DNA of 64,000 nt, from positions 25,422,001 through 25,486,000 of the forward strand of contig NC_087251.1 of assembly GCF_037042905.1 (NCBI RefSeq). The letters are read 5' to 3'. This DNA is from Lytechinus pictus. Its lineage: Eukaryota. Position 1 is the stretch's first letter. Every line of letters begins with the position of its first letter. This document shows positions 4,672 to 27,103 of this stretch, piece by piece. The position numbers and the translations under genes were made by a program. Below the pieces are notes generated by a model. The model was not told where the DNA came from. It saw only the letters and a list, made by a program, of their open reading frames with translations, and searched no databases.

Positions 4672-5790
4672 TTCAATTCAATTCAAATAAACATTTATTT
4701 TCTTCCATTTCAAAACATTTTTCATAAACATTAGTTCATACAAAAATCAAATTGTTATGAGGAATATAAATATGTACATGTTTGGTATAAAGAAGAAGGC
4801 GTATACCCTAAAAGCCGAGGCTTGTGACGGGATACGCCTATAGACAGAAATACAATACAAAATACAATACAAAAGAAAGGGCAGAGAAAAGAAGAGAAGG
4901 AAAGGGAACGAGAGAGGGAGACGTGAGCGGGAGGCGGGCATGAATTACTGTATAAAATAGAATGCTTAACAAATGTATCAGTGGGGGCAAAATATAAATG
5001 CCGCAACAACAATTGTCCATGGTTCATGTTAACTTAAAGTCAAAAGGAAACGTAAGTTGGAAAATATTCATATATAAAATGACAGAAGAAGTTTTTTCAT
5101 TTTATACTTAAAGCTAGTTGACGATAGAGATTGTTTTATGTAATCCGGTATTTCGTTCCATATTTTGGGGCCAGTATAACGAATGTTGTGTTGAAAGATT
5201 ATTTTTCTATGTTTGGGAATGAATATTTGATTATTTGAGCGGGTATCAAAATTATGTATGTTGGAAACATGCGTAAACAAATCACGAAATTTGTGTGGAA
5301 TTTGAGAATTTAAACACCTGTAGAGAAACTGACATTGTTGAAGTTTATTGATGTCGTCTAATTTCAACAATTTTAGGGAATGAAACAAATTTTTAGTATT
5401 TGCTAGTGGTATATTGTAATCTGGAGAAATAATACGCACAATTTTATTTTGAAGGGAACATAATTTCTTAAGATGGGTTTGGTATGTGTTCGCCCAGACC
5501 AAATTACAGAAATAAAAATATGGCAAGATTAAAGAGCAATATAATGTACGCAATACAGTTTTAGGCAAGTAAAAACTTAGGCGATGTATTATTCCAATAT
5601 TTTTTTGCAACTTTGTTCTCAATTTCATTTATGTGATGTATCCATGATAAATTACTATCAATAATAACGCCAAGAAATCTTGTATTTTCAACTCTGGGAA
5701 TAATTTGGTTGTTAAGTTTCACCACCGTTACATTATTAAAATCAATGCGCCTTGTGGAGTTACGGAATATAATGTAATTGCATTTTTTTA
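4672..5790 (-). mobile_element. 5'-truncated non-LTR retrotransposon (L2/Crack/CR1-group LINE): RT C-terminus, 3' UTR and (TTGAA)n tail
   Basis: ORF 5068-5628 has LYCSLILPYFYFCNLVW, LQNKIVRII, HNFDTRS and YTGPKIWNEIP. A frameshifted upstream part reads TRFLGVIIDSNLSW. The end at ~4672-4700 has AATAAA and TTGAA repeats on the - strand. Confidence 0.85.
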
Positions 5791-6119
5791 AGGCCCAAGG
5801 ATGAAGTTTTATGAGATGATTGTGGCCTTGTGTCCGAGGGTGTATCTTTAAAAATGATTTTGTTGCTTCTTTATTTCATGTTATTTTTTAATCTTTATCC
5901 AGTTAAAGACTAAAAGCAGGAAAATGTATATAATTATTCATCAAGTGATTTACAGGCCTGCCTAAATATAGGCTTTCTATACTCTATTTCACGGTATCAG
6001 CTGGAGACGTGTGAAGTTGTCAGTTCATGTATTATAATTTATCATGAATTGTTGCAACATTGATATGGAAGAAACAAATAAACGAAGATATTATAGGTCA
6101 ATACGGTTTATGATCACAA

Positions 6120-6327
6120 TTACCAGTTACGGTACCCTCCCCCGGGACGCTCGCCCCCGGGACCCTCCCCTCCCCTGCTCAGTTCTGCAGCCGCGGAGCA
6201 CATCACATATAATATGCACAGGCCATATAGACAAATATCAACAGGCGGTCTTGCCGGTCGGCCGGAGCGCGCGGCCCGCGGCCGCTCGATCATATCATGG
6301 ACCGATCCCATTCTTGACTACGGCGCA
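6120..6327 (+). promoter_or_regulatory. CpG/GC-rich promoter and 5' UTR region of the MULE/SWIM gene
   Basis: GC- and CpG-rich stretch (CCCCCGGGA twice, CCCTCCCC boxes, GCGCGCGGCCCGCGGCCG) in an AT-rich background, directly upstream of the ATG at 6328. Confidence 0.5.
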
Positions 6328-9300
6328 ATGGCTGCCGATGCCACCGAAAGCAGCATAAAATGTCAAGATGTTGAGGCTGTTTACAGGTGCATAGCTGATC
6401 ATGAAGAACGTTACAGGGTTAAATTCATCACTGCACATAAAGATAGAGATTTTGGGAAAATTCACGGTGAGTCCGAACTTATTTTTACCACCATAGTTAC
6501 TGCGGCAGCCCGAACACGTACAGTCGTGTCGAGGTTCCCGCACGGCTGTTTCACAGTGAAAATAAGCTTAGCGCCCCCTTGCGGCCCAAGTGCGCATATG
6601 CATGTAACTTTGTTGTGCCGTAATCTCTGCTGGGGCGATGAAAAAATCTTCGGTGAATGTTGTGGCATTTGGCGCTGACACGACCAACTCTCTCTGTCTA
6701 TCCCCAACAGTTTATTTATTTCGCAAGAATTCCGTGGAGGAAACATTTTTTTCCATGTTTGAAGTCGTAAGTATGGCAATGTGATAATACGTTTTCTGTT
6801 TTTCTCCATTTTGTCATGATGTTTGCGTTTGCATAATCCAATGTAAACTCGCGAATCTGGCCCTAATTATGGAACTTTTTAAAGTCCAAAATTTAAAAAG
6901 TCCGGTTTGTCAGCATTTCGTATTTATTGTAGTTTTGTTTTCAAAGTACTTAAGATTCATCTGGCGTAATTTTTCGTTGGACCCATCAGTAGAATTTATT
7001 TTAGGTTGATTTTTCGGTACAGCACATTCTGCTTGTGTAGGACGTGCGCGCCACTACCCCGGGTGAAGCCGGGCAGGGCCGGGTCGCGGGCCGCCTGGCT
7101 GTGTGGTCAGACACCGCTCATGTACACAGCAGCTCAGCTGCGCTTCGTGAGCTGAGGCTGAGCTAACCCAGGGAACTCCCGCCCGCGCAGCGGCCGGGCC
7201 GGAGCTCGCTGGGTTAAGGCTGAGCTAGCTGAGTGAGACCGAGTGCATTCGCTGTCCATCCATGACCATGTAATGATTTTGCTGCATGCTGCTGAGTGCT
7301 AACTTTGACTCGTGAAAAAGGGTTTTTCACGGTCTGTAGAGCTAGGTCTAGACTCTAATTTTCACAATCATGACAACACTTGCAATGTTTTTTTTTTTTT
7401 TTTGGGGGGGGGGGGGTTTGCATACAAATTTACAATGTTACTTGTATCTGTGATACTGATAGGGCTACATTGACTACACCGCTAGTGACTAGATTCAAGG
7501 TCAGCAGTGCTAGTAGTACTAGTACTAGTAGGCCCTATAGATTCTAGATTTTTTAATTAATTTTTTAGGGTGGGGTAGATTCTGCTTGAGGTTTTTTCAG
7601 ATACATGGGGGGGGGGATTGCATTAAAAATATGCTGTACTGCATAGAGTCTATATGGTGGGGCCAGGGGATCGGGATTGGGTCTGAAATGAAGGATTTTG
7701 TACGAGGAAGTTTATTTATTCCTTCTTTGGTTTTCTCAATCTTTTAATAATCAATACCACGCATTGCTACATTTATTCACAACAATTTACTGTATCGTAC
7801 TATGCACACAGAGGTCAGGTAAATTCTAATTTTCTATTATATCAGACCAAAATATACATTTATTATTATAGTTCATACAAAATTATATGATAGTTATCTC
7901 TGCACTCGCTTCTTTGGTGGCATTTCTTGATTACTAAATTTCATCATAAGATGACTTTCATCTTTCAAAGGTCCTTTCGTCTTTAATATAACATGTCTTC
8001 TGTGTGCACGTTTTTGTACAGGGAAGATTAGCATAAATTCTATTCGTCTTTTTTATCATCATGATAGTTGTTCTCTGGTGAAACAGGTAGTAAAATAATT
8101 GTGACTGGTACTGTAGCTTTTTCTTCTTTTGTTGATTTGAGTGGTGATAAGTCATATTTGACCAATGTCACCAACATAATCTAAAAAATCTCACTTCTCA
8201 CATAATGACATTATTACCAACTAGTCTCAAAAATTGAAGAAAAAATATGTATGTTACATCAGAGGTTAAATCTAAATCATGCCTATATTACATCAGATAA
8301 AAGAAACATCTTAAACAACTGCCAGCTATTTTACTTTTTATATATAAAATTATTAAAAAAAATTATATCACACAATTTTCAGTAATAATCTACACATCTG
8401 TGACGTTACAAAATAGAATAATTAGAAATTTATATCTCCAACATCCTGACTTCTACATTTAATCTTCTTCATTTGTCAGTTGCTTGGCGATGGGATGAGT
8501 CATTTTCTGAAGCAATGAGATGGAAGGAACCTTCAGAGCATCCAATAAACAAGGATTTCTGTGAGGCATTGTGTTTTCCACATTGCAGACCTCTGTATCA
8601 CCAACTTAAATGAGCCTCCACCTGTCCACCATGATCTCCCCCAAACTTAATCCACACCTCTTCTTCAGGAATTGCCCCATCGTGAGTTGTGAGAAATCCA
8701 TTCCTCTGGAAAGATGATGGAACATGAACATACATGTATTGGTAGGTTTTGATGATTTCTGCCAATTAATAGCTTTGGCTATTAAAAAAAAGGCTGGCCT
8801 CCCTCAACATTTTTCAAGATATTTCTATTACTCTTTTTCGTTTGAGTCTACTGGTAATGCAAAATTTAAGGCCACATTTGTGACAATTGGCACAGTTTAA
8901 AAAAAAATAATACAATTATGCAAGTGCATATCAGATCAAAATTTGTTCAAAAACTTGTTTTAGTACAAATCAAATGCTTTATTCTGTCTCCAGCAAAGAT
9001 TTATGATTGTATATATTATTCTCACTTTTGCTGAATTGAATCATGAATCTGGTGGCAGATTATAGTATCTATTGTCATTTAAAGGTTTGAATGATCATGA
9101 ATAATCCTTGGTGGCCATGTCCCTGAGATGAATTTATTGATTTCATGTTCTTTATGATCATTAAAACTATTCAAAATAAAGCAATATTCCGGTGCTAACT
9201 TTTCTTTCTATTTCTGTTGTCTAGCCACCTCCAGTCTGTGACTCTGCTATGGACCTAGCGAATCACTGTCGACTGTCCATGGTTCAAGTGAGGATTGGCA

Positions 9301-12300
9301 AACCTGGTCATTTCTTGATTACCTACAGAATGCAACTGCACCATGCAAAATCTTATGCAGTGATGGAGACACTACCTTTGACTGTGTGAAGATCAGACAA
9401 TGCAATTCCCATTGGTCAGCCCCCCACCCCAAGGAGCCATTCACTGCCAGAGATCTTGAGCCAGGTCTTCAGTGGTTATCCATGGATAAGAAGAACGGAG
9501 ACAATAAAGATAGTGAGGTCAGTATGACATTAATTCTCAGTGAAATTTACCTATTCATCTGTCTGTACTGTGACCAATTAAGGTGCCCATCATTCATCAT
9601 GGCCAACGTCTTTGCTGCATCTCGTTATGTAAATCTCTTTGAATGACTAACAAGAAGAAGCTTTCTTCACATGTATAAGCTGTAAAACATATATACATAA
9701 CAATTTTAATTTCATATTTTGATGGCCATTCACTAGAAGATTTTTCCCCCCGCAATTCAAATTTGGTGCATTTAAAATTCATCTGCCACTATACAGGTTG
9801 AAATAAAATACCCCCACTCACTTGCATGTACACATAGGGGTCATGGCTCGCCAAAATTTTCACCACAAAGAAAAGGGGATAAAAAAGGAAAGGAAAGTAA
9901 AAGGGGTGAAACATATTACTTTCTGAATATTGTGTCAATTGCTATCACAGTTACTATTATTTAAAATGTAAAAAATAGTCAATATGGAAGAAAATGTTTG
10001 AAGATGAGAAATCAAACTATCAAAGTGATTTGGATATCATAAGGAAGGGGATATATATTTTTCCAACTATAAGTAGATCAACATCTATACTTGTAAACCA
10101 TTCTTAAAAATAAAATTCATGTTTCATCAATATTTCAAAGAAATAAACGAGTAGTATATTGCATTTGTACAGGCGATGAGCTTTGAATTAAGATAATTCT
10201 CTCATTTAATTCGCAGTGCTAAGAATTTGCGTTACTTACTGTTCCAGGTATCTTGTTGATTTCCGCGTGACCATCTTCCTGACGCTTCTTCCAAACAATG
10301 AAACTGGAGGCTCTTTCCACGAATCTTGGAATATGTACAATTGAATGTATAGCTGCTTCAAGTGTGATTCCAGCTTTTTCAAGAGCTTCTTGACGTTCTA
10401 CTTCTACTGGCCTTTATTGTAGTTAACATGTCCTGTTAATATTTTTAGGAGGCCAGTTTTGCCACAAACACAGTAAACCTTAAGTTCACATATAGTTAAA
10501 AAACAGGGATTACTTGTAACATCATCTAGGAAAAAGTTCTTGCTACAAATTGGACATGGCGAAACTTTTCATTCATTATGTCTTCAGTATTTACTGAGGT
10601 ACTCACTACAAAAGGAAGTTGGGGTCAAAAGGTCAAGGTTTTGTTCAACTTGGTCACATTCCTTTATTTCTGCATCAATTATGTTCACACTTACTACATC
10701 TGATCCTTGGGTAATACTACATGTACTTTCATTAGGATAATGGGTCAAAGGCCTAATGTTAATAATCAACTGAAAATTACTTAGTCAGGAAAAGTGGCTT
10801 ATTGGATTCCCTATCTTTTGCTCATAATAATTTTTTTTTTCAAATTTAATATTTCTCCATCAAATCTGACAAATTCATTATTTTTTTTATCAATAATTAT
10901 TAAACGATGTCAGTAATAAGAGTTTTAATAAACATGTGCAGTATATGTACCAACATCCATGTGCAGAATATTTGCTGGAAGGGTACATGCTACAGAGAAA
11001 TTTTAAAGTGTGCAACCATAGGATACAGGAAAAAAAGTTATTGCAGTCTTTGATGTACTTTTAAAGATCAAGATAGAATTCACCCAAAACATCTATTAGG
11101 CGTTAGTAGCCGAAAATATCCTAGATTAGTTCAGCATTATTCATCTGGAAGAAGAGACGAGTCAAAGCATTTTAAACAATTTTAAAAGTTGCCTGCGCAA
11201 TAATTGTTTTAATTGTCAATTGATATGCAGTTAGAATTGATCAAATTCTGAATGCAAGCTGACAAATTATTTTAGAAGGAGGGTATTAACATGAATGTAT
11301 TTCAATACAAGTAAGATGTCTCTGGCCGTCTTGCCTGCATTATTATGCAATCCAATATGATTGCATTTCAGAAGTTCGGTATGGAAATGGGTGGATAATG
11401 GAAAAAGTATTTGTAGAGTTAAATGGCACTAATTGAATAATATTAAATTCAATTATTAACCAAAAACAGACTTCTGGAATGTCTCTACAGTTATTATTCA
11501 TGACATGTCTAATCATACTAGACTAGTAGAAAAATGTCAGCCAATACAATATTCAAATTTTCAATTTTTTTTAGTTCCAATAATTTAGATATATTTCACT
11601 TCAAACTTTAATTCAAAGACTACAGGCATCACTTTTTATACGCCCGTCTTGACGGGTGTATTATGGTATCACGCTCGGTGTCCGTCCGTCCGTTAACTTT
11701 TCCTTGTAAACGCGATAACTTCAGTTTAACTTAAAGGGGAATCCAGCCTTGCCCATAAAATGTTGTGTTGGGAAGGAGAAAAATAAAAGAAACAGAATGG
11801 TTAAAGTTTGAAAGAAATCGGATAAGCAATAAGAAAGTTATAGCTCCTTTAAAATTGAGATTACTAATACTATGTAGATTTCAAATTGGCAACTGAGTAA
11901 GTAAATTATGACAAGGGGCAAGGACAACTTTCCCATAGGCCATGTACTTTATTATCAGGGATTAGTGGTTTTTCTCCTAAGTACCCATTCCCCTAGGGCA
12001 GTAATCTAAATATAACCCAGGTAGTAGTATATTGTTTTATGTCCTCATGAAAGAAAAATATAATTTGAAATAAAACTGTTTGGAAAAATGAAATTCTAGC
12101 CATAATATGTATTGGAGTACATGGAAGAGTAGTCCTTGCCTTACATCACTATGACATCCAATATGCGGCCAATTTGAAGTCTCCATGGGTATCGTGATTA
12201 CCAATATTTACAACTTTTAAAAATTCATAACTTTCTTGTTGTTTATCCAATATTGTTCAAACTTTCAGCTATCAACTTGTCTGATTTTTCTTTTCCTTAT

Positions 12301-15300
12301 AAAAACAAGTTTTTATCTGGGTTGGATTCCCCTTTAATCTAGGCTCATATAATTTGGTGCCCGATACTAGCATGGATCCCAGGAAGCCTATAGATTTTGA
12401 GGTCAGAAGGTCAAAGGTGAAGCCACCATCTTCCACTTCTCTTGCTTGACCAATAACTCCATTTTCCATGTTACAGACGGGCATATTATGTGCCCGCCTT
12501 AGCAACACTCTTGTTCAATTTGAAGTGTATTGATTAAGAAGTTATAGCATGTATGTTAAATAGTAGGTTAAAAACAACTAAAATATGTATTATAATGACA
12601 ATGTATTATATTGTGTCATGATATGAATTATGACTGTAAGGTTTACATTTCTAGTCAGTTAAAATTCAAAGAACAACGAGATGCAGATTATTTTTACAAA
12701 TTCAACCATTTTGAAAATATAAAGGAATGAGCTACATGTGCATGTCATACCCAATCTTATCAATTACCAGTAGTCACTTATCTGATTTGTAATTTATATT
12801 TATAGTATTTTTAAGTCTTGTATCATTGCATGAAAAAATTTTATCCACGGGGTACTGAATTTGCCGGGCATGTGAAGGTGAAAGTCATTTTTCATTTTTT
12901 TTTTATAACATTGTTAAAATTAAATGTACACTGTAATTGATATGTATACAACGATAGATAACCAATTTTTGTGACTGTTTGAGTGGTAGATCACATAAAA
13001 TTTGCAAATATTATATTTTAAAATGACTGATTATTTCATATTTATATTTATTCTTTTTTTGGAGGGGGTATATAATGCAGACCTGACAAGTGACCATGGT
13101 TTTCATTTAGGAGTTCAATCCCTTCTCCTTTCATCCATATTTTATAGCTTTTATAAAGTTACGAGGGTTTCATTGACCCTACAGACATGTAGAGTTTGAA
13201 TTTTACCTCCTGGAATCTAATCCAAACACATAAAATGAGGAGTATCCATATCAGGTAATGGTAAATGATTATGTCTTAAACACATTTTTTTCCAAACACA
13301 TATAAAGTATTCTAATCTTGGGCTATCATGAATTAAGTTTTAGGCTATTTATCCCATATTTCTCACATTAGTCCATAATTCATTTCCATATCGGTTGTTA
13401 TACATGCTTATTAAAACATTTTATTGGAAGGTTTCATTCAAGTAAAATTATTGTCTTAATGTTTATTTATATATATATCTTTGTGCATGTAATGTCACTG
13501 GAAGGCAAATTTTCAAATGTGGTTCAATAAATAGATGAATGTGAATGAATCTCTATCTTTATCTAAACTTCCTTAAATATGTAGTAATTCACTGCAACTT
13601 TATTGTAAATTTTGAATAAAATTCGTTTATACAATCTTACTCTTTTTTATAAGCAAGGGATGACCTGCAATGACTACTCGAGACATCTAACATTCTGTTG
13701 TATAATCAAGGATAAAGGCACAAGGGTGAGGCACATGTACTTGTATGCTGCCCTTCCACGCTATATTTTGAGAATGACTCCTTGATTAGGCATCTTTATC
13801 CAAATGAAAGACCATTGTCATTAGTACGCCACCCCCTTCCTCAATTTTGCCTTCTCCAGTGCCCCATTGCATAAAAGTTAGTATTATGGTAACCTTGTTA
13901 TCAAATGGTAACTACCATGTTAACACTAATCAAAGCTAATCAAGATCAAGGACTCCATACAAGTTGTATTTGCATGGTAAATCATAATGGTAACTCTTTA
14001 TGCAATGGGGCCCAGGTATATTAAATCCTTGATCACTGACAACAAACAATTAATGAAACGGGACAAAGGCAGTATTGATGAAACTGAAAAACCAGAGTCA
14101 AAGGCAGGGTTGGAAGGGACACATCCCTCCCCCCCCCTCATTTTGAAAAAAATCTCAATTGAACATGCTACTAATATAACTATAGGCCTGTTTTAAAAAT
14201 ACTGGACCTGCCTCTTTTAGGAAATTGCATAGAAAATTGTCATCTGCACCCACTCAATTTTCAGTTTTGCTCTTTGCACCCTCTTGATTTAAAAAATACT
14301 GGACCTGCCTCTGAGATATTGTGGGGTTGGATCGGCTTGGGTATTTATGACGGTGGGGGGGGGGGGGATAATATTTCACCTCCACAATTAGAAAAAACAT
14401 AGTTTCCATTAAAAAATTTAACAAGTAAAGTTATTTTAAATAATCAGTGACATTAATACTAAAGGGGGGGGGGAGCTGTGGGGCTTTCTAAAACCATGTA
14501 CAAAAACATAAAAATTACCATGTAAATATGATTATTGCATGGTCAGCCCCTGCTTTCATAACTATTCCGCGGCACCTAACACCACTTTCCAGAAGGGGGG
14601 GGGGGGACTCCTCAAAAGTAAGATGGCCCACCCACCCACCCCCCCCCCCACAATAAAAAAAAACACAAATTTTTTTTACATTTAAGTTATTGAAGTAAAT
14701 CATAACAATCACAATATTTACAAATGATTAGCATGATGGAAAAGCATAAAATCATGAAATATTACAAATAAAAAAGGCAGATATAAGATTATAATCATCT
14801 ATACGTTTTCAAGAGGGAAGCGCCGAGATAGAAAAAAAAAGACCGCTCTAACTAAATTTTTTTGAAAGACCCTTTTTTTTTTTTTTTTCATTTTTTTTTT
14901 TTTTGGGGGGGTTCATCAACATTTCATTCAGCTTGAACCCCCCCCCCTTAAATATTCCTACGTAAGCTTCTGTAACAAGTTGTGTATTTTTTTAATTTTT
15001 TAATGAGAAAGAGTTTGCCTATTTTTTTAGAGGACCGCCAACTTAAGCAACTTATGCAAATGAAAAAAATAGGCCAATATACTCTCGCACCTTATATGAT
15101 ATGACAGCTAGCTAGCTAGGGGCAACAATTATTTTCCATGATCGATCATGATCCGTGGTACTTGGTATCGTCGACTCGATCTCCCATTCTAAAATAGGCT
15201 CTCCCCATGATCAAGTCTGAAAAGGATCACAAAATGCTGTCTGACGAACGTGAATGTTTTAGTTGCAACATTTCTCTCAAATCTTAATTATGAGAAGAGA

Positions 15301-18300
15301 AATGGAATAATTCATGTAGAAATTTTCCTCTAAAACAAATACATTTGTCTACGTGGTCTCGCTGTGTTTGGTCCGGTCTTGGACCTAACGCTAGATCTAG
15401 ACCCATTTCCCCATTCAAAGTGTGATCGATGACGTCCAGATAGTTTTGTTTACAAATAAATCATAAATCGTATTTAGCGGTGAAAGATCGATTGCCAATT
15501 TGTATTTATAAATTTCAAGGATTCAAAACTATATAAACTAAATTCAACATATCATAATAATTTTTCCAACAAAACTTAACAAAAAATATCTAAAACTTCT
15601 AACAAACTTATTTTTATTTGAATTTGTTACTTTTTTAATGAAATATACACCTTACAAATCTTATAATGAAACAATGATCGTGTTATAAGTTTCCAGAAGA
15701 AATTTGGCAACGTCAAAGACCGAATATGGTATTTGACGTGCATTAGAAGTACTGGGTAGCAAAAGTCGAATTAAAAGAAAACTAGTGATGGGTTTGTGAT
15801 GCCAATTGGATATGTTATTAAACAAGACATTATATCTTTTGAGACGTTGAGAACACCAAAATCGGACGAGTGGTTTTCAAGATATTGAGCCTGAAATGGA
15901 CGCTCTCTGCAAGTCCCAGGGGCCAGGCTCATTCGAGATTGCACAGAAAATGTCTCTAATAAGAGTGGAACTCTCAGGATTTTTGTAAATATCTTCAAAA
16001 TGATAAGGATTTTCGAAATTTGGAATGTGATTTCTCGTGATATTTTGGAGATACCATATAACGATGGAAAGGAATAACCTTAAAAGGTAAGGCAAACCTC
16101 AAAAAATGTAGCTTTCTAACACATGTCGAATGAAAGTCTTACAGTTGATCGTCGAGTGGTGTAAAAGTTGAAATTGCATATCAGCTGGCTGGGCAGCGCG
16201 CGCGGATTTCGTGCGCGCGTACTTGAAAGGGCTTATTTTGTACATAGCCTATGGGAGTGAAACAGCCGTGCCCGGGGCAACCACCATAGATCATTAGATG
16301 ATTTGGTTAATCGTCATGATCGTAGACGACAATTAATAGTCCCATCTGCTGAAATACAAGTTGTCTCAGTTGTATCATCTCAGTTATTTATAAAGTAATA
16401 TTGCAGCACACAACATTCCATCCAATAAAGTGATAATGGGGGATTTCAAGTTTGGTGTTGATGTTGGTGTTTAGAGCTTGAAAAGGCTGCTGAACTGATC
16501 GTTAGAGTACGGTACATGGCAGTTGTCTGCTGCTTCGAGGACTTTTTAAACATTTAATTTTTTATATATTTTTTTATTTCTCGTACACAGAGTGAGACTG
16601 AGAGTGACAGACGGCTCAGCTCACGAACGTGACCCACCATTAGGGAATTTGCAATGCGAAATCCCCCCGATGGGGATCTATCTTTGATTTTTCACTTTGT
16701 TCTACATAAATTACGGTACATGAAAATAACTAGATCCTGGTAAAGTTAATTATTCTGTTTTTGCCTCAGAAGCACCAAAACGGGGAAAAATGAACTTATT
16801 AAAAGGAAAAAAAATCAGTGACTTTTAGTTCAGCTGTCATACAACTCCCAGTATATCAGAAGGTGTAATATAATAGTTAATACACAAACATATGGGTGTT
16901 GGAAAAACTTCCGGGTTGAAACCATTGGCCAATCAGATCATCCTTTCTAAATCGGGTTGGATTGCTTGTCGATCTTACGCAAGCGACAAATGTTCAACTC
17001 ATAGAAACATCCGGGCACCATAAATAACGTAAGGGTCAAGGGGTGATGTCTGTCGTCACTCTCATGAATATTCAGATCCAAGATTGTAGCTTACAGGTTC
17101 CAATAAATTAAGGAACAATTAGAATCTCATGTCATGATAAGAAATTGATGTTAACCATTGTCCAGGTGGGAATATAGGGAAAGAAATTAGTTCAAGGGTA
17201 TGATATAAATATGGCGGTCATAATAGGGTATGTACATGTACTTTGGTAATGATAATAAGATTAAACTTGTTTGTGGGGGTTCTTAGCTATATCTGCCATT
17301 GAGTCCCTGTACAGATCAAGTTAGAACTTCTGTAATTGGAGAGTGGAGCCAATGGAGTTCAGTGGAACAACCATTATAACAGAGACCTAAGCTTTTGGTC
17401 TAAACTGATCTGAGCTTTAACACCGAGCTGGGCCGGGTTCAGGAGACAGAAGAACGATGCCATTCGAGTTATCGATCATAAAAACTCTAAGAATATGGCT
17501 ATGCCATACTTGTTTGCCTCTGCACTGCGCTGCTGATCTAATCATCTCAACTTCATGTTAAAACTTCTCGACGATGAAAGTGGAATCGGGGAGAAATTTA
17601 CCATAAAAATCTCATAACACTACAGGCTAAAATTACTTCAAGAATCCAAAAGAGTATATATTAATGTCCATTAAAATGTATAGATCTAGGCCTAAATGTA
17701 CTGTAAGGCTCTAACGTCTAATGATTTGCACTCATCTTCTCTGTAAAAACCTAATTTTTGGGGGGGATTTTTCATCCTGTTCACCTGTTTGTGGGCTTCA
17801 AATCACCAACGCCAACACCAACTTGAAATCACAATTTTCCCCATCCCTGGGGGTTGGTGTTGGTCAATAGAGGAAATTACACGTAGATCGTCAACACCAG
17901 CACAAAGTTATGATATAACCTTGTTCTCTGTTACTACTCCTTGTGTGGTGAAATAAGGTTGCCAATGTTTGGCTTATTTTCTTTTGTTCTAGGGGACAAG
18001 TGCTTGATTTTTTGATACTGTCAGTTTCCATTACAGCTACATATACTTGGCTCTTAAGTATTTTGAATTCTTTAGATTATGTTTTATACGCTCGTCCTAG
18101 ACGGGACGTATTATGGTATCACGCTTGGAGTCCGTCCGTTAACTTTTCCTTGTAAACGCGATAACTTCAGTTTGAATTAACCTAGGCTCATAATTTGGTG
18201 TGTATGATACTAATATGGATCCCAGGAAGCCTACCAAAGTGAGGTCAAAAGGTCAAAGGTCAAGGTCACACTGACATGTTTTCATCTTACCCTTTTGAAG

Positions 18301-21300
18301 TCCTTGTAAACGCGATAACTTCAGTTTAACTTAACCTAGGCTCATATAATTTGGTGTGTATGATACTAGCATAGATCCTAGCAATTCTATTGATTTTGAG
18401 GTCAGAAGGTCAAAGGTGAAGTCACCACCTTCCACTTTTCTTGCTTGAACAATAACTCCATTTTCTGCATTACAGATGTGCTCGCCTTAGCGACACTCTT
18501 GTTCTCTGTTAATAAGGTTGGCAATGTTTGGCTTATTTTCTCTTGTTTTGGGGACAAATGCTTGATTTTTTTACGCTGTCAGTTTCCAGTACAATTATTC
18601 ATTATATAACTTGGCTCTGGAGTAAATTTAATTCTTTTGATTATTCTTTATAAATTAAAAATAGAGATCATTGAATGACAATATCCTTGCAATTTTACTT
18701 TCTACCAATAGAGGGCCTACACACAAAAAAATGCTCAAAATTACAGTTTTTGAGCACTCTTTTGATTGAAAAAAATATCCCCAAGTTACTAATGAAAACT
18801 AAGTCACAACTATGATATGGAAATAAGTATTTTTGGTTAAGTAACATTTTAAAGAATTTTAAAATGTGTGTTGTGTACTGCATAGATCTACATGTAGATT
18901 CCCCATAGACAGGCTGGTTGCAGTGAACAAGTGGACTGTATCTGTGACTGTGAGGACACTGAGTACTCATCCAACATTGTTATGGCAATGAGCCTGAGTT
19001 AGGTGCTCTAGATCATCACATAAGTCTGTTTTATTAAAAGATATAATTTTAGGAAATGAATGTAGGCCTATATCTAGTCATGTAAATGCTTGATTTTTCA
19101 ATAGAGTATCACTACAAGGGATTGCTGAGTCACATATTTGTAGTTAGAGTCTGCATGGAGTGCAATTGTTGCATGGCATATTTGTAATTCATGGAGATAG
19201 AAAAGCTACAGCTGGCATACATCATTTGAAGTGATATCACTGTCACGCTGGGCAACCCTATGGCAGCCTTAGGTTTTTGACAAGCACCATGGTTTTTTAT
19301 AAGCACCATGGTTTGACAAGCACCGTGTAAATACATCATCTATCTCTGTTTTGTTGCAGAAAGTATCCCTGACCCTGGCAAGTCCTTTCTAAGATTTCGA
19401 CTTGACTATGGTGGTCAGTCTCCAAAGATAGAATGTGATGGGGTTCCATTCTTCTACATGCATCGTCATGTCCTGATATGTCATCAAGGAAGGGACAGGA
19501 ATGAGAAAACCAAAGCAAGGAGAAAGGTAGAGCAATTCATCTTAAAATAGAAAAGTCATGTACATCTGAGAAGTTACACAGAATTTTGTATAATATTCCA
19601 AATTTATGGTGGTTGAATTACACTAGACTTATATTAGAGAACTCTCCATTAGGTATATGCCTGTAGGTACTTTGCATATTTTTTTTTTAAATATCATACC
19701 ATGAAAAAATATAAATGCATAAAATTTTCTGTGACTTTCAAGAATGACCACAATAACTTGTCATATTAGGCAGAACCACACACTATTAAATTATCCAGTT
19801 ACTTTGAAAATCTTGGGATCACCTCATATTTGTCTTGTTTTTAGAGAATTCTGCATCATTTAGGTCAGATACATTTTTATTTCACATTTATGATAGTCAG
19901 TTGTGGATAATTCAATTTTCCGTTTAAATAAAAAGTTATGTTTTAATGTACCAAAGGTAGATTGTTGCTGAACCAAAATATAATTTGATGTCTGGTCTTT
20001 CTTATTTGAGAGTGGCCTGCTATTGATTTAATGTAATTTATAATCTATTTATGATATGTCTGGGTTGCATATTCAGGCTTTGGTACAGTTTAGCAATGCA
20101 ACGAATCAAGAACACACTCAAAGGAAGAAGAGGAAGCTAGTTCAGGATACTAAAAAAGTTGATTGTCCAGCCAGTGTGTATGTTGTACAGATTCTCAGAT
20201 TCATAGACTACAAACTACAGGTAATGATACCATCACCATATTGCATATATCTTGCCATTAACCATCTATTGCAAGTACCATAACAACCTTGCTCAATAGC
20301 TAGTCCAAATCAAGTTCAATGGAAGTTTATAATCAAAGACCAATCAAAGATAAACATTTTTTCTTGAAAGTGAATTAATTATGTACCTCTTGTAATAACT
20401 GCAGCTTTTTAAAAGTGTTTTGAATGATACAATATTACTGTGTACAATTTTTGATAACTTTTTGACATTTTCAAATTCTTTTTGGGGTGTTCTTATTGTT
20501 ATAATATTCTTTTTGGGGTGGTCTTTTGTTTATCCACTGAACTATATCTAGTTGACAATAAGTTTCATGTGCATTTTCTGTAATTGTTTTCTAATGTATT
20601 TTTGTTATTGTATTCCAGGGCCTCTAAGTATATCAGTGTTTGAACCACTGACAGAGTCACCCTGGTTAAAGACGTAATAATAAATAAAATAAATAAATAA
20701 GCAACTTTGAATGATTTTAACACAGTACCAAGGATTAGAACCAACTGGTCACTCCAAGGTCCTTGCCAAAAGACAACTGAAAGAACGATACCAGACTGAT
20801 TCCAGCTCCATCCATACTGAGACCCTGTTCTATGTCAGTCTACCACCACTGTCTTCACATAGAGGCCATCCAGTCAATAACATTGTAAGCAAAACTACTC
20901 AGACAGCCTTGATTCTATTCAATTATCTAAAAATCCCCTTCGGGAATTTTCTAGTTCACTAATTCATATTTTGAGCAAATATTTTCCATTGGTGAGAGTA
21001 ATTGGACAAACTTTAATTTCCAAGGCAAATTTGGATGTAGCAGCGGGGTGCTACATAAGCACTTGCCCGATTGCCCGGGGCAAGTAAAAGTTATAGTCGG
21101 GCAAGTGTTTTGAAGTAAAGACCAAAACTACTTGCCCGAATTGGGCAAGCAAAATTCTCACAGTAGAATTACCTAAATTAGGGTCGGTATATCATATCGA
21201 CCCTAATTTTGGTCATGGCGGGCAAGATAAAATCACTTTGTAGAAAGAAATGCAAGAACAAGGTACATCAGTTCATGTCAAAAAAGAGGAAAAAAAAGGT

Positions 21301-24300
21301 CAATGGTTTCTAAAACCATAATATTTTCTTTTGAAGAAGTAAAACTTTTTTTCAAGGATTTTTTCGGGCAAGTGAAATAGATTTTCGGGCAAGTATATTC
21401 CAACTATTTAAAAATTCACTTGCCCAACAGGGCAAGTGCATCTAAAAAATTATGAAGCACCCTGTAGCAGTCTTTCCAAAGCACTGCTAAGGAAGGATAG
21501 GCTCTGCACTGTGCATTCATATTCCTTGGGAAGTCATAGTTTAACTGGAACCAAAAGATGTTTATTTGCAGTTTATCCTACAACAGAGATGATCTAATTA
21601 TAGAAAAAAAGAGTATCTCTCCAAGAAATAATACCTAAAATAAAATAAATGGCTAAAAGTAACTCTAAAGCAAAGCTAAAAAAAGTAATCTCCTTGTTGC
21701 GTGCCTCTGTATGCTTTTAGTGTGCTCATGTGTTTGCTTTAATTGCTAATTACAGGTAATATGTGCTTGTAGTTGTTTAAGTTTAATTAATTGCGATATG
21801 GATAAGATAACAGGGTAACAATCTTTTATTAAAGGTGATACACAGCAATACACTTTCATTTTATCCTTACTCTAGAATCCAAATAATGATATCATAGCTA
21901 TCTAGCTGACAGATCAGTGAAAAGTTCAACACTCGTTTGTGTTTAATGGATAAATGTACAATTAATCACATTTTTCTTATCACCATAGGACATCAACACT
22001 CTAGGTGTGTTGGAATATAAGATAAATTATGTAATTTATTTATTGTAGCATAATATACTAGTATACCACTTAAGAGGATTTGTTTATGATCTGTTTGTCT
22101 CAGGCTGCAGGGCTACGAGAAGCATTAGATCCCCAGATACTTCACAAAATATCAGAATTGACAGCAAAGGGCATCTACAAAGTTCCAGAAATCAGAAAAC
22201 ATCTTGATGAGTATGTACAGAGCGCCCTCTTCCATTCGTCTGAGCAACCGGAAAGGACAAGAAGACGCTACTACCCAACAGATATTGATATCCGCAATGC
22301 CGTACAAAGAGCTAAGAAAGAGGTCCATACCAAGGTTGACCAGAATAATGCTTCGATGTTGATTTCATTGTGGAAACAGGAAAGTCAGGATTTCTTTGAA
22401 TACAGACCACTGAAGCAAGGTATGTTGAACGGTCTGTGTAGCAAATTTGATTGCGACAAGGAATACAATGCACTAGCTGATTGTGCCATTTTAACTTCAT
22501 CACCACATTCATTTTCAAGTCAGAAAGTTTGTTGAATAAAGGAGTAAAAAATCAGAAAAAAAGGTAAAATAGTGAATTTACTACATTTCAAAGCTTGGCA
22601 TGATTTCATAAACAGTATGTACATCTTAGGTGAGTTATGCAATGAAAGAGCAGGTGATATTGTGCACACTCCCTTTGCCCTTTATGTTAATAGATTTGTG
22701 AAGCAACCTCCTGGTTGTCCTTTATTGAGCATATAGCATATTTGAAGAAAAAAATAGTAGTCAGTATATTTATTCTCAGAAATAGCTCAGTTGTAAATCC
22801 ATTACAGAGAACGGAAGTGCTGCTGTCGCAGTTATGTTGTAACTATCTTTCAAGCCACTGCATTTTCCAATGCCATATATGTTAAAAATGTGTGATCATT
22901 ATTTTGACCATTTACATTCTCTTTTTAAATGCTGATGTTGAAATGCAAAATCAAATACTTATAGAGTGCAGTGTCACACTTCTCAGGTATTCTACATTGT
23001 CTGTGAAATATGAGAAATGAAATGAATCTTGAAATATGAATATCAATTTACCCGCAGGATCTGAAGTGGACAAATTCCTCTTCTGTTGCCAAACACGCTG
23101 GCAGAGCCGACTCCTCAACAGGTATGGCAACTCCTTCACTGTCTTGGATGCTGTATACAGAAGTGCTGGATACTCCCTTCCACTCTTTCTTCTTTCTGTG
23201 AGGACCAACATGGGATATACCCCAGTTGGGATGTTTGTCTCACATAGCGACACAGCGGAGGACATTGCAGAGGCGCTGAGTGTATTTAGAAGATGGAATC
23301 CTGATTGGAATCCGGAGGGGTTCATGGTGGATTATTTTGACCCGGAGATTGAAGCTACAGAGGCGATTTTCCCAGGTTTGTTATTACATGCAATGGACAT
23401 GAAACACCAAGATTATTGATAAATGATGTAATACTATTTGATGTAGTACAACACCTACTCAACTAGTTGAACACAAGCTTGTTGGAGCTGAAATGTAAAA
23501 TATCGTACCATCCCACACATACCATCCACAATGTACCATTTCACAGCTGTGTGACATCAAACAAAAAGCCTTGCAGTAAGCTCTCAGGATTGAAAGACAT
23601 TTTTTTTCTTCTAAAGTTGCTTGAGAATCACTGTCTGTAATGGGGAATATCAAGTGTGGCAAGACAGGTGACCTGGGTACCCAAGTGATTGCCTTGGATG
23701 CTTACACCAGGGTTGTTGTTGTTGGGGCTGAAATTAAGAAAATAAAATTAATATCTGCTCCTGTAATATATAGTTCTTTTGATTCATCTGTGACATCACT
23801 TGTAGTTTGCAGGCATGGATTGCAAGTCACACAGTTATAAGATCAATCAATCACTATTCACCTCGTGCAACCTTTTTACATTCACACTTGTGTCTATTTG
23901 TTATTTGTGTAATTATTTTTTTATGTTCCATGTCCATTCTAACCTACACTTCTAAGATGAATTAACTTAGAGCTGACTCACATCTTCAATGTATTGAAGT
24001 GTCTGTTGGTCTGAAAAAAAAATTGGATATGTTATTCTGCAGTTTGAGAGCAGCAGTCATGACTAATCTTTTATAAAGTCAGGGAATCAGATTCTTATGA
24101 TAGCCAAGTTTAGACCAGTATGTAATGATGTAATTCTTAAAGGGAAATATAAAATACTAATAGCGAAGTTTGAACTATCTTTCAATTTGACAGGATGCAC
24201 TGCATTATTCTGCTACCACCGTTGTGAGACCTTATGGCAGGATTGGCTCAGAGACTCATCTGGGATATCTGATGGGTTAGTGAGAGCTCGTATGATCAAG

Positions 24301-27103
24301 ACACTGAGAAGGATTGCAATGGCAACCACAATGAGAGAACAGGAATGTGGTCTAAAGGGACTGAAGACAATTAATGTATGGAAAGAGAATGAGGCTGTTT
24401 CTACCTGGTTCAGCATGTTCTGGTTATCTTGTATGAAGGTAAGTATTCCTAGCTATTTTTTGATGTATTGTATGATATCAAAAGTAACTCTCAATAGATA
24501 CATATTCAGTTCATATAGCCAACTATCTAAACAATGCAGAAAAGTACTTACCGTACTAAGAATTGAACATGAGTACAAATACATAGGGTGAACAAACAGT
24601 TAACAAGAGATGATACTCTCATAATATCATGCCTTAATTGCATTCATTATGTATAAACAAGTAATGTATGGATAGAAAATAAACAAATTGGTGATATTGG
24701 ATATGCAGTAAGAAGTAGTAGTAGTAGTAGTTGTAGTTGTAGGATATATTAAAACCCAGGTGAGGTAAATGGGTACCGGTAGGAAGTAATTCCTTAAAAA
24801 GCTGTGTGCGCTATGAACGCCTAGCTTAGCCGGGTAATATAGGAGCGCCTTGAGCACCTAACAAGGTGGATATGTGCACAATATAAATACCCTATAGTAT
24901 TATTATTATTAAAAGAAAATCAACAAATTGGTGATATTGGATAAACGGTAGTAGTAATACTAGTAGGATATACACATATTTAGAAAGTATCTTTGAAGAT
25001 CAATCATGTGTGTGAAATGTATTGTTCTTCTTTACACCCAGAGATGGACAACCTTGTTTCAGAATGAAAGGGTCAGAGTAGCAATGTATGCTGTCAATGG
25101 CTGCAAGCAACAGAATGACATGTTCAACCATCCATATGTGAGCGGCAATAAAGACTGCAGCCTTAGTGAAATGATGACTATACTCTACACAAAATGCTTT
25201 CCAGGAGAATATCGAAAGTAAGTCTAGAGGTCAGAGATTATTGTTTTGAGGCATATTTCCATGATGATCCATCAAGAGATTTGAACCCACTTTATCTTCT
25301 TTTCCACTCCTTTTGTTTTCCATGTTTACATTAAATGTATTGAAATGTGACCTTTGTTGATAAGTGTTGAAAAATGAGTGTATCTTTCTTTATTATGAAC
25401 AAGAATCTCAGTTTCATGGTGAGAAGTTAAGTTAGACTTCTTTGGAACAGTCAGAGCCCATATTGACCCTGACCTTTGATAGAATACCTCTCAGCATCTT
25501 TACACTTCTACTCCTTCCCGTTTTTCATAAAGAAAGCAGCTAGAGATAGGGGAAGGCAATGGGGGGCCTTGGGTGTGGCAAAGCAGGGGAAATAATGATG
25601 GACATGAATTTTAATGGTATGCTATTCAATAAAACTTAATTATTTTTAATATCGTTCAATATAAAGTCTTCTTGAATTCTCTTGAGATCAAGTGCTTTAT
25701 AAACGATAAGAAATAACCCTTATATATTTTTTTCCTTCAAATTCTGGTTGATTGACAGGTATGTGGAGTTCAATGCACGCTATTCAAGCAGTTACCTCAA
25801 GTACAGTGCTGATATCCCCGCTTTCTTGCACAGTAAGCCTCGTTTTATTGTAGAGCATGTGGAGAAGTGCATGACTACAACCGTCATTTCAGAGAACATC
25901 CAGGCCGGCCAGGATGGCCACTTTGTTGTCAAAGGGGATAGGAATCAGGCTCATCAGGTGTTCTTCGGAAATGAGGAGAGGTATCCCTCATGTACTTGTT
26001 CATACTGGACCAAACTATATCTGCCTTGCAAACACTTTTGTGCTATCTTTCGGCATGTGCCTGGTTGGTCTTGGGACCAGCTTGGAGCAGCATATCGTGA
26101 TAATCCTCTGTTTCTCTTAGATGGGGATGTCCTAATGGTCAGTGATCCTAAAAAGCTTTCTCAAGAAGTCCAAAAGCTTGCCACGGAGGAGAGAAAACCA
26201 GCAGAGCCAGGAGGTTCTATAGAGGAATCAACAATAATGGCTTCGGCTGAGGAAGTGTCGAATGCTCAAGCAGAGGAAGCATCAAAGTCAAAGAGGCCAC
26301 AGCGAGCTGCAGTCACCTGTAAACGTCTTGTAAGAAAGAACATGGACCTTCTTGATAAGTTGGAGTCTCAGGTTCCTCATTTGAAGGACAAGATTGTCCT
26401 TGAGGACATGCTTAATACTCTCCAAAAGCTAGTACACAGAGTACAAAGAATCGGGACTCGAGGTAAGAAGAATACTGTAGCAGCTCACAGAATTTCTTTA
26501 AAAACTCAGAAGAGGAAACTTCAAAGTGACTTTGACTGGATGACTGAGAAAAATCAGAGCACTGTATCCAGTTCTGAACATGCAAAAGCCCCATCAGCTG
26601 TGGAAGATGATGGAAGTAGTATGGCCACACAACTCTGTCCAAATGTCTTTACTTGTGTGAACAGTGATATTCACCAAGCTGCTGCGGGAGGTAGTCAAGA
26701 AATTTCTGGAACTAGTCAGCAAAGTGCGAGTAGTGCTGCCTTTTCCCATGATAATGAAAATCGTAATATACAAAATACCACATTGGACAACAGTAATGAA
26801 ATCAGTAGTGACATGATAGAAGCTATTGTCCTCAACCAGAATCTGTTCACAGGTAACTACCTACCTTTAACCGTGGATGCTCAAGGATCTGAGGGAACAG
26901 TAGCTGAACATCACAATCTCCATGGCAACATCACCATTGTAACAGAGGCTCCTGTTGGCCAGGAGGTCATGTCTACTGAGGGTGTTATTATTCAGACAGT
27001 TGATCAGATTGACCATGAACATTTCATCATTGATTCCGTACACCAAGGTATAACAGTCACTGTTGCTGATGCTGAACTTGACAGAGTGTCATCTGTTACA
27101 TAA
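6328..27103 (+). CDS. MULE (Mutator) transposase-derived protein with CaRF-like N-terminal DNA-binding region and SWIM zinc finger, ~1002 aa, 9 coding exons
   Basis: Exons 6328-6466, 19360-19526, 20077-20220, 20726-20884, 22104-22419, 23058-23375, 24194-24438, 25042-25217, 25759-27103. All introns are GT-AG with matching phases; total 3009 nt, no internal stop. Motifs: DGVPF..LICHQGRDR, QDTKKVDCPA and LPPLSSHRGHP (CaRF/WRKY-GCM1-like); LDAVYRSAGYSLPLF..WNPDWNPEGFMVD (MULE core); CTCSYWTKLYLPCKH (SWIM, 25991-26035). Joining exon 1 across the 12.9-kb intron is the least certain part. Confidence 0.85.
8500..10769 (-). pseudogene. Decayed, intron-containing Chapaev/RAG1-like transposase
   Basis: Three - strand exon remnants in the expected domain order. 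10240-10769: FCSEYLSKY*RHNE*KVSPCPICSKNFFLDDVTSNPCFLTICELKVYCVCGKTGLLKILTGH (RING C-terminal half plus zinc finger). 9551-9679: AAKTLAMMNDGHLNWSQYRQMNR. ~8530-8705: HDGAIPEEEVWIKFGGDHG/GGSFKLVIQ/VCNVE. Contains stops and frameshifts. A possible C-terminal remnant at ~7894-8060 (NRIYANLP...EMPPKKRVQR*) is weaker. Confidence 0.7.
11633..12514 (+). mobile_element. DINE-1/HINE-like repeat interrupted by a TTAA MITE
   Basis: Homologous to 18082-18503 on both sides of the 11735-12333 insertion. Confidence 0.6.
11735..12333. mobile_element. TTAA-target MITE (Kolobok-like), copy 1
   Basis: TIR AGGGGAATCCA/TGGATTCCCCT with TTAA on both sides. The related host repeat at ~18331 has a single TTAA (empty site). 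Highly similar to 56885-57465. Confidence 0.85.
13858..14015. mobile_element. Short palindromic MITE
   Basis: GCCCCATTGCATAAAAGTTA / TAACTCTTTATGCAATGGGGC inverted ends. Confidence 0.6.
18082..18503 (+). mobile_element. DINE-1/HINE-like repeat
   Basis: Starts TTTTATACGCTCGTC, has a GTCC microsatellite and a 3' hairpin GTGCTCGCCTTAGCGACAC followed by TCTTGTT; sister copy at ~11633-12514. Confidence 0.6.
21044..21464. mobile_element. MITE with CAGGGTGCT-type TIRs and repeated CTTGCCCGA motif
   Basis: CGGGGTGCTACATAA / TTATGAAGCACCCTG; flanking direct repeat TAGCAG (21038-21043, 21465-21470); many GGGCAAG/CTTGCCC subterminal motifs. Confidence 0.7.
24754..24910 (+). mobile_element. SINE 3' portion with (TAT)n tail
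   Basis: ACCCAGGTGAGGTAAATGGGTACC core, GAGCGCCTTGAGCAC..GGATATGTGC..TATAAATA and a TATTATTATT tail; related fragment at ~47388-47520. Confidence 0.55.

Follow-up and report, generated by a model that had tools for sequence, protein, structure and literature searches.

Elements of the Chapaev (CMC) superfamily are recognised in part by their CAC/GTG termini, according to excerpts of PMC4079192, and the same excerpts, from 2014, call their biology largely uncharacterised; the lizard families treated in the excerpted parts of PMC4079192 and PMC3014272 are extinct. Chapaev3 families, as set out in sections of PMC4411706 and PMC4079192, generate 3-bp TWA duplications and have short non-autonomous forms, and Transib and ProtoRAG elements are described in excerpts of PMC8355894 as producing a 5-bp target-site duplication. 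The literature found on Chapaev in Lytechinus concerns RAG evolution.

The window (the whole 64,000-nucleotide stretch of Lytechinus pictus DNA analysed here) harbors a 9,730-bp element whose family is a new member of the known Chapaev superfamily. It is very probable that the full account given below is correct: namely, that this is a non-autonomous Chapaev of the Chapa+RING subgroup, within the CMC/Transib lineage, that spread by a cut-and-paste process, the chemistry of which is presumed from knowledge of the family.

Ends, duplications and target site

The element and its surroundings comprise the following features.

6328-6466 (+): host gene exon 1 (CaRF(ALS2CR8)/MULE-RNaseH/SWIM), matching P0008 at 100% over residues 1-46
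6467-19359: host gene intron 1, containing the Chapaev element
6488-6496 and 16281-16289: left and right copies of the mini-element's 9-bp duplication
6497-6540 (+): left 44 bp of a dispersed mini-element of about 50 bp, the last 6 bp of which are 16275-16280
6537-6540: left 4-bp target-site duplication, CCCG
6541-16270 (-, following the orientation of the defunct transposase): non-autonomous Chapaev element, 9,730 bp
6541-6554 (+): left 14-bp terminal inverted repeat, starting CAC, perfect
6559-6567 (+): A-rich 9-bp subterminal motif, 4 nt inside the left repeat
16231-16239: second A-rich 9-bp subterminal motif, 17 nt inside the right repeat
16257-16270 (-): right 14-bp terminal inverted repeat, perfect
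16271-16274: right target-site duplication, CCCG
19360-27103 (+): exons 2-9 of the host gene, with an open frame that matches P0008, a protein of 1002 aa

The original prediction, a Chapaev-like transposon at 6537..16274, correctly identified the perfect 14-bp repeats with their CAC start, the perfect CCCG duplication on either side, and an insertion 74 bp past the exon-1 donor (the donor GT lies at 6467, 74 nt before the element); its span took in both duplications, and the element proper occupies 6541-16270. Across the 812-Mb genome the exact 14-mer end occurs 39 times, against 0 for a reversed control, and matching 4-bp flanks are found in 12 of the 12 long copies in which both ends are exact, the 4-mer differing each time, although one of these 12 lies in poly-C and is uninformative for duplication. 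The ends are therefore not a product of chance, and the other loci with paired termini and 4-bp duplications that had been anticipated do exist. The Chapaev assignment made at the outset is borne out by these CAC...GTG ends, by a duplication within the 3-4-bp range of the superfamily, and by N-terminal Chapa and then RING remnants that match the transposase P0005 (below). The varied 4-bp duplications differ from the 3-bp TWA of Chapaev3 and from the 5 bp of Transib and ProtoRAG (RAGL).

Compared with its position at the left end, the A-rich motif sits 13 nt deeper at the right, an offset of unproven significance, and a 420-bp MITE that has two like ends without the motif is flanked by a clean 4-bp duplication. 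A 12/23-like end rule was not supported by these observations or by the ends of the intact Chapaev element described below.

The insertion occurred inside the dispersed mini-element of about 50 bp, which is present at 23 other places among the matches listed; eight of eight fetched paralogs, representing about three independent sites, are uninterrupted and contain CCCG only once. The surrounding host gene displays ALS2CR8 and ZSWIM RNaseH-like domains, with weak matches to MULE and SWIM. It looks like a domesticated transposase gene, as had been proposed, derived from a MULE, in view of its single copy (the nearest paralogs are 38-45% identical), its open frame, and its conservation in a Diadema homolog (52% identical over 1,051 columns); no literature was found on a CaRF/MULE domesticated transposase of this kind. 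Among the read joints covered (four runs, 15 of 475 listed), none spans the element and none links host exons 1 and 2, with the sister-species run lacking coverage of the upstream flank. The insertion is probably tolerated through splicing out.

Remnants of the transposase and their relation to RAG1

Inside the element, pieces of a transposase gene are interspersed with rearrangements and a nested repeat.

8452-8714 (-): remnant of the first catalytic exon, P0005 aa 412-497, with GGDHGG and the first Asp kept, frameshifted
8453-8454: deletion junction, with about 9 kb of the parent missing, including all C-terminal transposase exons
9550-9676 (-): LA..L.WSQY..M.R remnant, aa 300-345
10243-10616 (-): remnant of the RING C-terminal half and zinc finger, aa 172-297, with 3 stops and 1 frameshift
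about 10773-11181: inversion around the Chapa exon
10959-11173 (+): inverted Chapa domain remnant, aa 1-70
11731-12337: nested high-copy repeat of about 600 bp, here only in the window copy, C21 and C14
13500-14000: recombination switch, C14-type to the left and C15-type to the right

A Pfam search with four decayed peptides returned no relevant family, so that identification required intact relatives, of which the closest is the Chapa+RING transposase LOC121427243 of Lytechinus variegatus (P0005). The remnants are 52-80% identical to this protein, depending on the segment, in agreement with the predicted CMC/RAG1-like match, and frameshift-aware scores were 344 for the RING and zinc finger, 149 for the W-motif piece and 188 for the GGDHGG exon, against 30-41 in a control of one shuffle. 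The predicted minus-strand remnants are present and in the predicted order, but the contiguous GGDHGGGSFK is not, since the frame shifts directly after GGDHGG. Nothing that corresponds to the reference transposase beyond residue ~497 is left in the element, the deletion junction having been placed by collinearity with G000:C3:2.150-2.176 Mb. The inverted Chapa exon, the recombinant make-up of this copy and the antisense RNA (both below) had gone unnoticed in the original prediction.

The parent-type transposase is related to RAG1, at 16% identity to its core. P0005 carries RAG1_imp_bd (PF12560, above cut-off) and DUF1280, and a 68-sequence alignment of the parent type conserves a DDE core with C(2)C, LH and H motifs (D508 in 64 of 64 sequences, E786 in 56 of 57), of which the element itself keeps the first Asp only. 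The corresponding profile matches RAG1 101-380 (E 2.7e-14), and the predicted model of P0005 aligns with RAG1 459-1007 (Z 26.6, rmsd 4.4, 466 aligned), with ProtoRAG (Z 24.6) and with HzTransib (Z 24.5). The LA..L.WSQY..M.R remnant is the start of the structurally aligned region; because the match begins at RAG1 residue 459, the nonamer-binding domain, which we take to be bounded accordingly, is unmatched. Searches of PDB with the single P0005 sequence returned RING proteins only, and a PDB-type search with the L055 exon bearing the W motif gave no match; inspection of ORF lists by eye, for the element and for the 3' region of its decayed parent, revealed none that resembled RAG2. In the L055 relative, the motifs given in PMC1131882 are preserved.

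Copies, age and proposed history

All 14 copies read lack residues beyond aa 506 and contain frameshifts, including a common one after GGDHGG, and none has an open transposase gene with all three catalytic residues; the equivalents of D508 and E786 are absent from all 14. With two of three catalytic residues missing throughout, the copies appear to have been moved in trans after the gene died, and the original reading of the element as non-autonomous is upheld by these shared lesions. (The interiors of six single-ended copies are known from 1.5-kb flanks and search matches.)

The copies read differ by up to 8%, and the window copy is among the youngest of the family, diverging by 0.3% from its nearest relative, C21 (0.0-0.8% in each of 13 bins over 9.7 kb); a second clade of five copies displays 0.3-0.8% divergence within itself. 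The window copy is a recombinant of two subfamilies: informative sites are C14-type rather than C15-type by 170 to 3 before 13500, and by 3 to 62 after it.

These observations suggest the following history. In an ancestral copy the transposase gene would have been truncated by loss of its 3' half, two internal segments would have dropped out, and the first exon would have been inverted, with both ends left in place. Acting in trans, a DDE transposase with the RAG1 fold, of the kind encoded by LOC121427243, would then have bound those ends, and copies would have been pasted by way of a 4-nt staggered cut in several waves. The recombinant window copy landed in the mini-element that lies within intron 1 of the conserved host gene. 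The family also yields a spliced RNA that comes from the left-end region and runs against the transposase gene.

A spliced antisense RNA

Joined reads define a transcript on the plus strand of the element.

6662-6766 (+): first seen exon, in X1 and X3 contigs, start undefined
6767-8479: intron 1, GTAAGT..TCAG
8480-8741 (+): exon 2, over the catalytic-exon remnant (X21, 4 reads; X1; X3)
8742-9234: intron 2
9235-9517 (+): exon 3, mostly an older dispersed repeat, 66-79% identical to other places
9518-10247: intron 3
10248-13628 (+): exon 4, start fixed by the joint and extent drawn from high-depth contig pieces rather than one record

The three introns are of the GT-AG type on the plus strand, with the same mate strand as the host exons. 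In the only run recorded as RNA, two of the joints are each backed by 4 reads, and the first joint has none (X1 is presumed to be RNA by guess, and X3 is a run of unrecorded kind). The joints do not correspond to DNA deletions in the 14 aligned copies; for the first joint this also holds in three left-only copies that reach past it, a fourth diverging at base 210. A promoter within the element, near its left end, probably drives this RNA, with a start predicted near 6660; a candidate acceptor at 6710 might also let host exon 1 splice into the element. The transcript is apparently non-coding: among Met-started ORFs of the joined exons the longest reaches 60 aa, a 134-aa plus-strand frame has no Pfam match, and the RNA has no Rfam match, so that a protein-coding role is rejected for now.

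It is doubtful, if worth weighing, that this RNA is functional, whether as a selected silencer or piRNA precursor directed against the partner transposase or as an aid to the persistence of the element. Its splice-site bases are invariant (30 of 30 across 14 copies up to 8% apart, with a local chance product of 0.008), yet that figure is unclean, as sites were chosen for use and mutated copies would not splice, and the copies are kin, so few changes are expected. Donor 1 is also found in the old parent locus, and exons 2 and 4 overlie transposase exons, but two acceptors overlap former codons, and parent-type DNA matches the remnants at no more than 70-78% identity, a weak basis for small-RNA targeting. 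Reads carrying alleles from more than one subfamily lie on the same strand, with almost no sense-strand signal, and the longest ORF is short; against this, long non-coding RNAs of transposon origin are common. Among the literature entries listed, including those on sea-urchin piRNAs, there is no case of antisense RNA from non-autonomous DNA transposons. Somewhat less likely again is the wider proposal that copies dead for transposase, yet still jumping, carry this conserved antisense unit as an RNA brake, possibly ancestral, on a RAG1-like partner.

Source of the transposase

While the predicted recent movement in trans is supported, among other things by the 0.3% divergence from C21, the active relative invoked for it was not found in the assembly. 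No intact transposase of the matching type was found in a search with P0005 (54 of 142 candidates scored), within which the sole full-length gene of that type is disrupted and lacks a left end, with DNA 70-87% identical. No autonomous partner appeared among 100 of 151 places listed in end searches (exact and one-mismatch), or in 25.8 kb of the parent-type locus. The trans-acting enzyme would presumably have been encoded on the other haplotype, in other individuals, within an assembly gap, or by a gene recently lost.

It is improbable that the family was instead cross-mobilised by an intact, very young Chapaev at G000:C7:22900540-22909665, rather than by a P0005-type enzyme. That element, the only one in the assembly with a verified intact Chapaev gene, encodes an open 936-aa Chapa+RING+DDE protein in 10 GT-AG exons, is flanked by a 4-bp duplication, and has two other copies at 100% and 99% over 1,448 bp; but DNA transposases normally require their own end sequences, its ends share just their first 4 bases with those of the family, and its protein matches P0005 at 26% identity. 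Most improbable is that the copies are old and immobile and owe their near-identity to gene conversion or segmental copying, since, for all that no partner was found and the mosaic shows exchange among copies, identity ends at the termini, every copy has its own 4-bp duplication, and the divergence from C21 stays at 0.0-0.8% in all 13 bins. Mobilisation in trans by a P0005-type enzyme remains the preferred reading.

Significance and comparison with known systems

This genome reveals very recent movement of RING-bearing Chapaev elements, in the form of non-autonomous copies 0.3% apart, and also of a separate intact family, two copies of which show no differences across the 1,448 bp compared. 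With defined ends and an intact enzyme, one can ask what the RAG1-type N-terminal zinc fingers and RING contribute to a transposase that has no RAG2. The antisense RNA would be important if regulation of the transposase by such RNA proved true.

Antisense or repressor derivatives of DNA transposons are exemplified by maize Mu killer, IS10 RNA-OUT and the P-element KP. As in those systems, a rearranged derivative here makes RNA against a transposase gene; in contrast to them, the RNA is multi-exon, spliced, and produced by a mobile multicopy family, and repression is putative.

The long hobo/hAT families of Anolis, as presented in excerpts of PMC3014272, are likewise long and non-autonomous, contain older repeats and display inter-element recombination, but they belong to another superfamily, and those excerpts do not mention antisense RNA. 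With RAG1, ProtoRAG (BbRAG1L) and Transib, in the portions of PMC1131882 and PMC8355894 available, the parent-type transposase shares an N-terminal Chapa/RING region and the core fold, while differing in its 4-bp rather than 5-bp duplication and in the unmatched nonamer-binding domain. The closest systems are the RING-bearing Chapaev subgroups outlined in parts of Kapitonov and Koonin 2015 (PMC4411706) and Zhang et al. 2014 (PMC4079192): these have CAC...GTG ends and a 4-bp duplication, as here, and a Chapa zinc finger followed by a RING and by a DDE core with C(2)C, LH and a later His, found here in intact relatives. Unlike the Chapaevs covered in those parts, the present family reaches 9-11 kb despite being non-autonomous, carries its Chapa exon inverted, and is very young.

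Termini, insertion site and host gene

The original prediction placed, 74 nucleotides past the donor of host exon 1, a transposon with a perfect 14-bp inverted repeat starting CAC and with CCCG on both sides, and all of these features are present in the sequence:

6328-6466, plus strand: host exon 1
6541-16270: Chapaev element (9,730 bp); its 14-bp inverted repeat opens with CAC and has no mismatch
6497-6540 and 16275-16280: mini-element of ~50 bp that has 9-bp duplications and practically lacks inverted ends, found in at least 23 other places

A search of the 812-Mb genome with the 200-bp ends returned 18 places for the left and 17 for the right. The exact 14-mer occurs 39 times (reversed control, 0): 12 pairs are long and one forms a 420-bp MITE, eight occurrences are single family ends, and five other singles show no family relation past the repeat. 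Every long pair has a 4-bp duplication (12/12) whose 4-mer differs each time; one sits in poly-C. The MITE (L058, at G000:C3:66052316-66052735 of the assembly) displays a 4-bp duplication and two long, similar arms that start with the first 24 bp of the family's right end, and further pairs carry a one-base variant of the 14-bp repeat. A 9-bp A-rich motif sits 13 nt deeper inside the element at the right end than at the left, a possible RSS-like asymmetry, but the MITE lacks the motif in both of its similar ends and still has a clean 4-bp duplication. Two left-only family copies (G000:C8:28646999 and C8:38173046) have a flank in common, pointing to either a segmental duplication or a repeat as the insertion target.

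The left-hand 44 bp next to the element are part of the mini-element, whose 9-bp duplication is suggestive of a MULE. CCCG is found once in all eight of the paralogs fetched (of 23 listed), six of which run on like the window's right flank; six of the eight have flanks in common, leaving about three independent sites. The duplication was thus created by the insertion. Neither an orthologous empty site nor a host exon 1-exon 2 joint was observed among the 15 of 475 joints listed for four sequencing runs mapped on 5900-20400.

The host protein (P0008, a 1002-aa Lytechinus pictus record) matches the window in nine exons at 95-100%. ALS2CR8 (CaRF) and ZSWIM RNaseH-like domains exceed the cut-off, and MULE and SWIM matches are weak; because the gene also is single copy (paralogs at 38-45%) and its product is 52% identical to a Diadema protein, 'domesticated', as it had been called, seems a fair label. 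Intron 1 spans 12,893 nt, or 3,159 nt minus the element and one duplication. A strong plus-strand acceptor at 6706-6710 (pyrimidine tract and CAG), 244 nt past the host donor and invariant in 14 copies, could divert host splicing. Elsewhere in the window lie Kelch-repeat exons recognized by eye (41000-45100, minus strand), a LINE-like RT tail (5068-5875) and a MAPEG-like exon (59850-60146).

Decay and ancestry of the transposase

Queries reading through the stops of the coding remnants turned up two more distant genomic loci, one of which led to P0005 (Lytechinus variegatus LOC121427243; 844 aa, with RAG1_imp_bd and DUF1280), against which the element retains:

Minus strand: remnants of P0005 residues 172-297, 300-345 and 412-497, scores 149-344 (shuffled control, 30-41)
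Plus strand: remnant of residues 1-70, scores in the same range (same control)

Nothing in the element exceeded the shuffled control for residues 87-171, 346-411 or 498-844; the family-invariant first Asp is retained, and the second Asp, C(2)C, His and Glu are lost. Relative to a broken full-length parent-type locus (G000:C3:2.150-2.176 Mb), with which it is collinear at 70-87%, the element has lost ~9 kb at 8453/8454 and is inverted near 10773-11181. Of 14 copies read, 13 showed the inverted piece, and the absence of the C-terminal half and a frameshift after GGDHGG are common to all 14, in agreement with the proposal of a non-autonomous element with decayed coding region and perfect ends. 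Such common lesions argue that the family multiplied after its transposase gene died, which would have required an enzyme in trans, as originally proposed.

The claimed RAG1 relationship was likewise supported. P0005 has 2,098 relatives at E<=0.001, and a 68-sequence profile matched mouse RAG1 residues 101-380 at E 2.7e-14, with core stretches collinear but weak. The best Foldseek match of its AlphaFold model (pLDDT 82) is RAG1 (E 1.9e-16), and VIA-align superimposed model residues 318-836 on RAG1 459-1007 (Z 26.6, rmsd 4.4, 466 aligned), with Z of 24.6 for ProtoRAG, 24.5 for HzTransib and 12.2 for the P element.

Recent movement and the source of transposase

The window copy diverges by 0.3% from its closest sister copy, C21, a distance that bears out recent movement, by 1.5% from copy C14 and by 7-8% from the oldest clade; a second clade comprises five copies with internal divergence of 0.3-0.8%. 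Both the window copy and C21 are of recombinant origin: for the C14 type, informative sites stand at 170:3 before 13500 and 3:62 after it. Template switching in gap repair would account for this. Most of the element is covered by DNA reads from a second organism; summed depths there of several hundred, versus about 48 on host exons, show that the family is present and are not a copy number.

Several copies are themselves interrupted. Nested insertions lie near the right end in copies C21 and C1; in C21 a 16.7-kb insertion (G000:C21:10068876-10085564), bounded by CAC...GTG and apparently flanked by a 2-bp TA duplication, sits some 20 bp from that end. In another copy ~32 kb (G000:C20:3311636-3344029), with CAC...GTG bounds, an apparent AAAA duplication and two poorly matching ends, splits the first ~22 bp of the left end from the remainder. 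A C20 copy (L052-L053) harbors a nested insertion of ~4.2 kb, whose open 514-aa ORF reads by eye as pogo/DDE-like with a terminal PHD-like finger.

Movement in trans by an active relative, as predicted, remains the favored reading. No intact P0005-type gene was found in the assembly among the 54 of 142 candidates scored, which yielded one full-length gene of that type, broken and lacking its left end, plus fragments. One compact fragment (G000:C20:15997530-15999298), a deleted or processed copy, matches P0005 residues 47-280, 430-472 and 579-712 at 42-72%, all inside 1.8 kb. The true partner most likely resides on another haplotype, in other individuals or in a gap, or was recently lost. Cross-mobilization is a minor alternative: the same genome contains an intact, very young and autonomous-looking 9,126-bp Chapaev (G000:C7:22900540-22909665; L055, L078) with a 4-bp duplication, short imperfect ends, a 10-exon gene for a 936-aa Chapa, RING and DDE protein, and two other copies on C15 and C6 (100% and 99% over 1,448 bp), but its ends match those of the family in four bases only and its protein shares 26% identity with P0005.

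Spliced antisense RNA

Mapping of the four runs revealed three plus-strand GT-AG joints within the element, with consensus splice sites: (i) the first in contigs of X1 (guessed RNA) and X3 (kind unclear) only; (ii) the second in both and, as four raw reads, in X21, a stranded RNA run; and (iii) the third in X1 and four X21 reads. The DNA run X19 contained none of them. Since the X21 reads share their mate strand with those of the host exons (other strand near zero, 0-0.16 in 8320-10255), the spliced RNA is plus-strand, opposite to the transposase. Antisense-exon depth in X1 and X3 is 200-240, versus 3-26 in host-exon bins, and in X21 the two are similar. None of four bases private to the window copy was seen in RNA, and the few X21 reads carry alleles from at least two subfamilies. 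Sister copies are thus the source of the RNA, which would favor an internal promoter over host read-through.

Antisense exons 2 and 4 overlie what is left of the catalytic and RING regions, exon 3 derives from an older repeat, and no Met-started ORF exceeds 60 aa. Splice-site bases are invariant (30/30) across 14 copies, with a local chance product of 0.008 that is biased, the used sites having been selected and two acceptors overlapping former codons; four of the six sites have an aligned counterpart in the old parent locus. A silencing role for this RNA is conceivable and rather improbable. Among DNA transposons, maize Mu killer, IS10 RNA-OUT and the P-element KP are examples of antisense or repressor forms.

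Relationship to known Chapaev elements

The original interpretation was correct in substance, and what adds interest is that RING-bearing Chapaevs have been active very recently and that a spliced antisense RNA is made. In PMC4411706 and PMC4079192, Chapaev is marked by Chapa and RING on a RAG1-type core, CAC...GTG ends and 3-4-bp duplications; RAG1, ProtoRAG and Transib are treated in PMC1131882 and PMC8355894 and long non-autonomous hobo/hAT families in PMC3014272, and further sources were PMC12730594 and bioRxiv 2021.09.26.461848. The present family fits that superfamily in its CAC...GTG ends, 4-bp duplications and Chapa-plus-RING parent, and the top PDB match of the intact C7 Chapaev's RING is RAG1. 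The RAG1 relationship is already known for the superfamily as a whole, and the family may already have a name in Repbase or Dfam; the element is a real, young, non-autonomous Chapaev that adds a member to a known superfamily.
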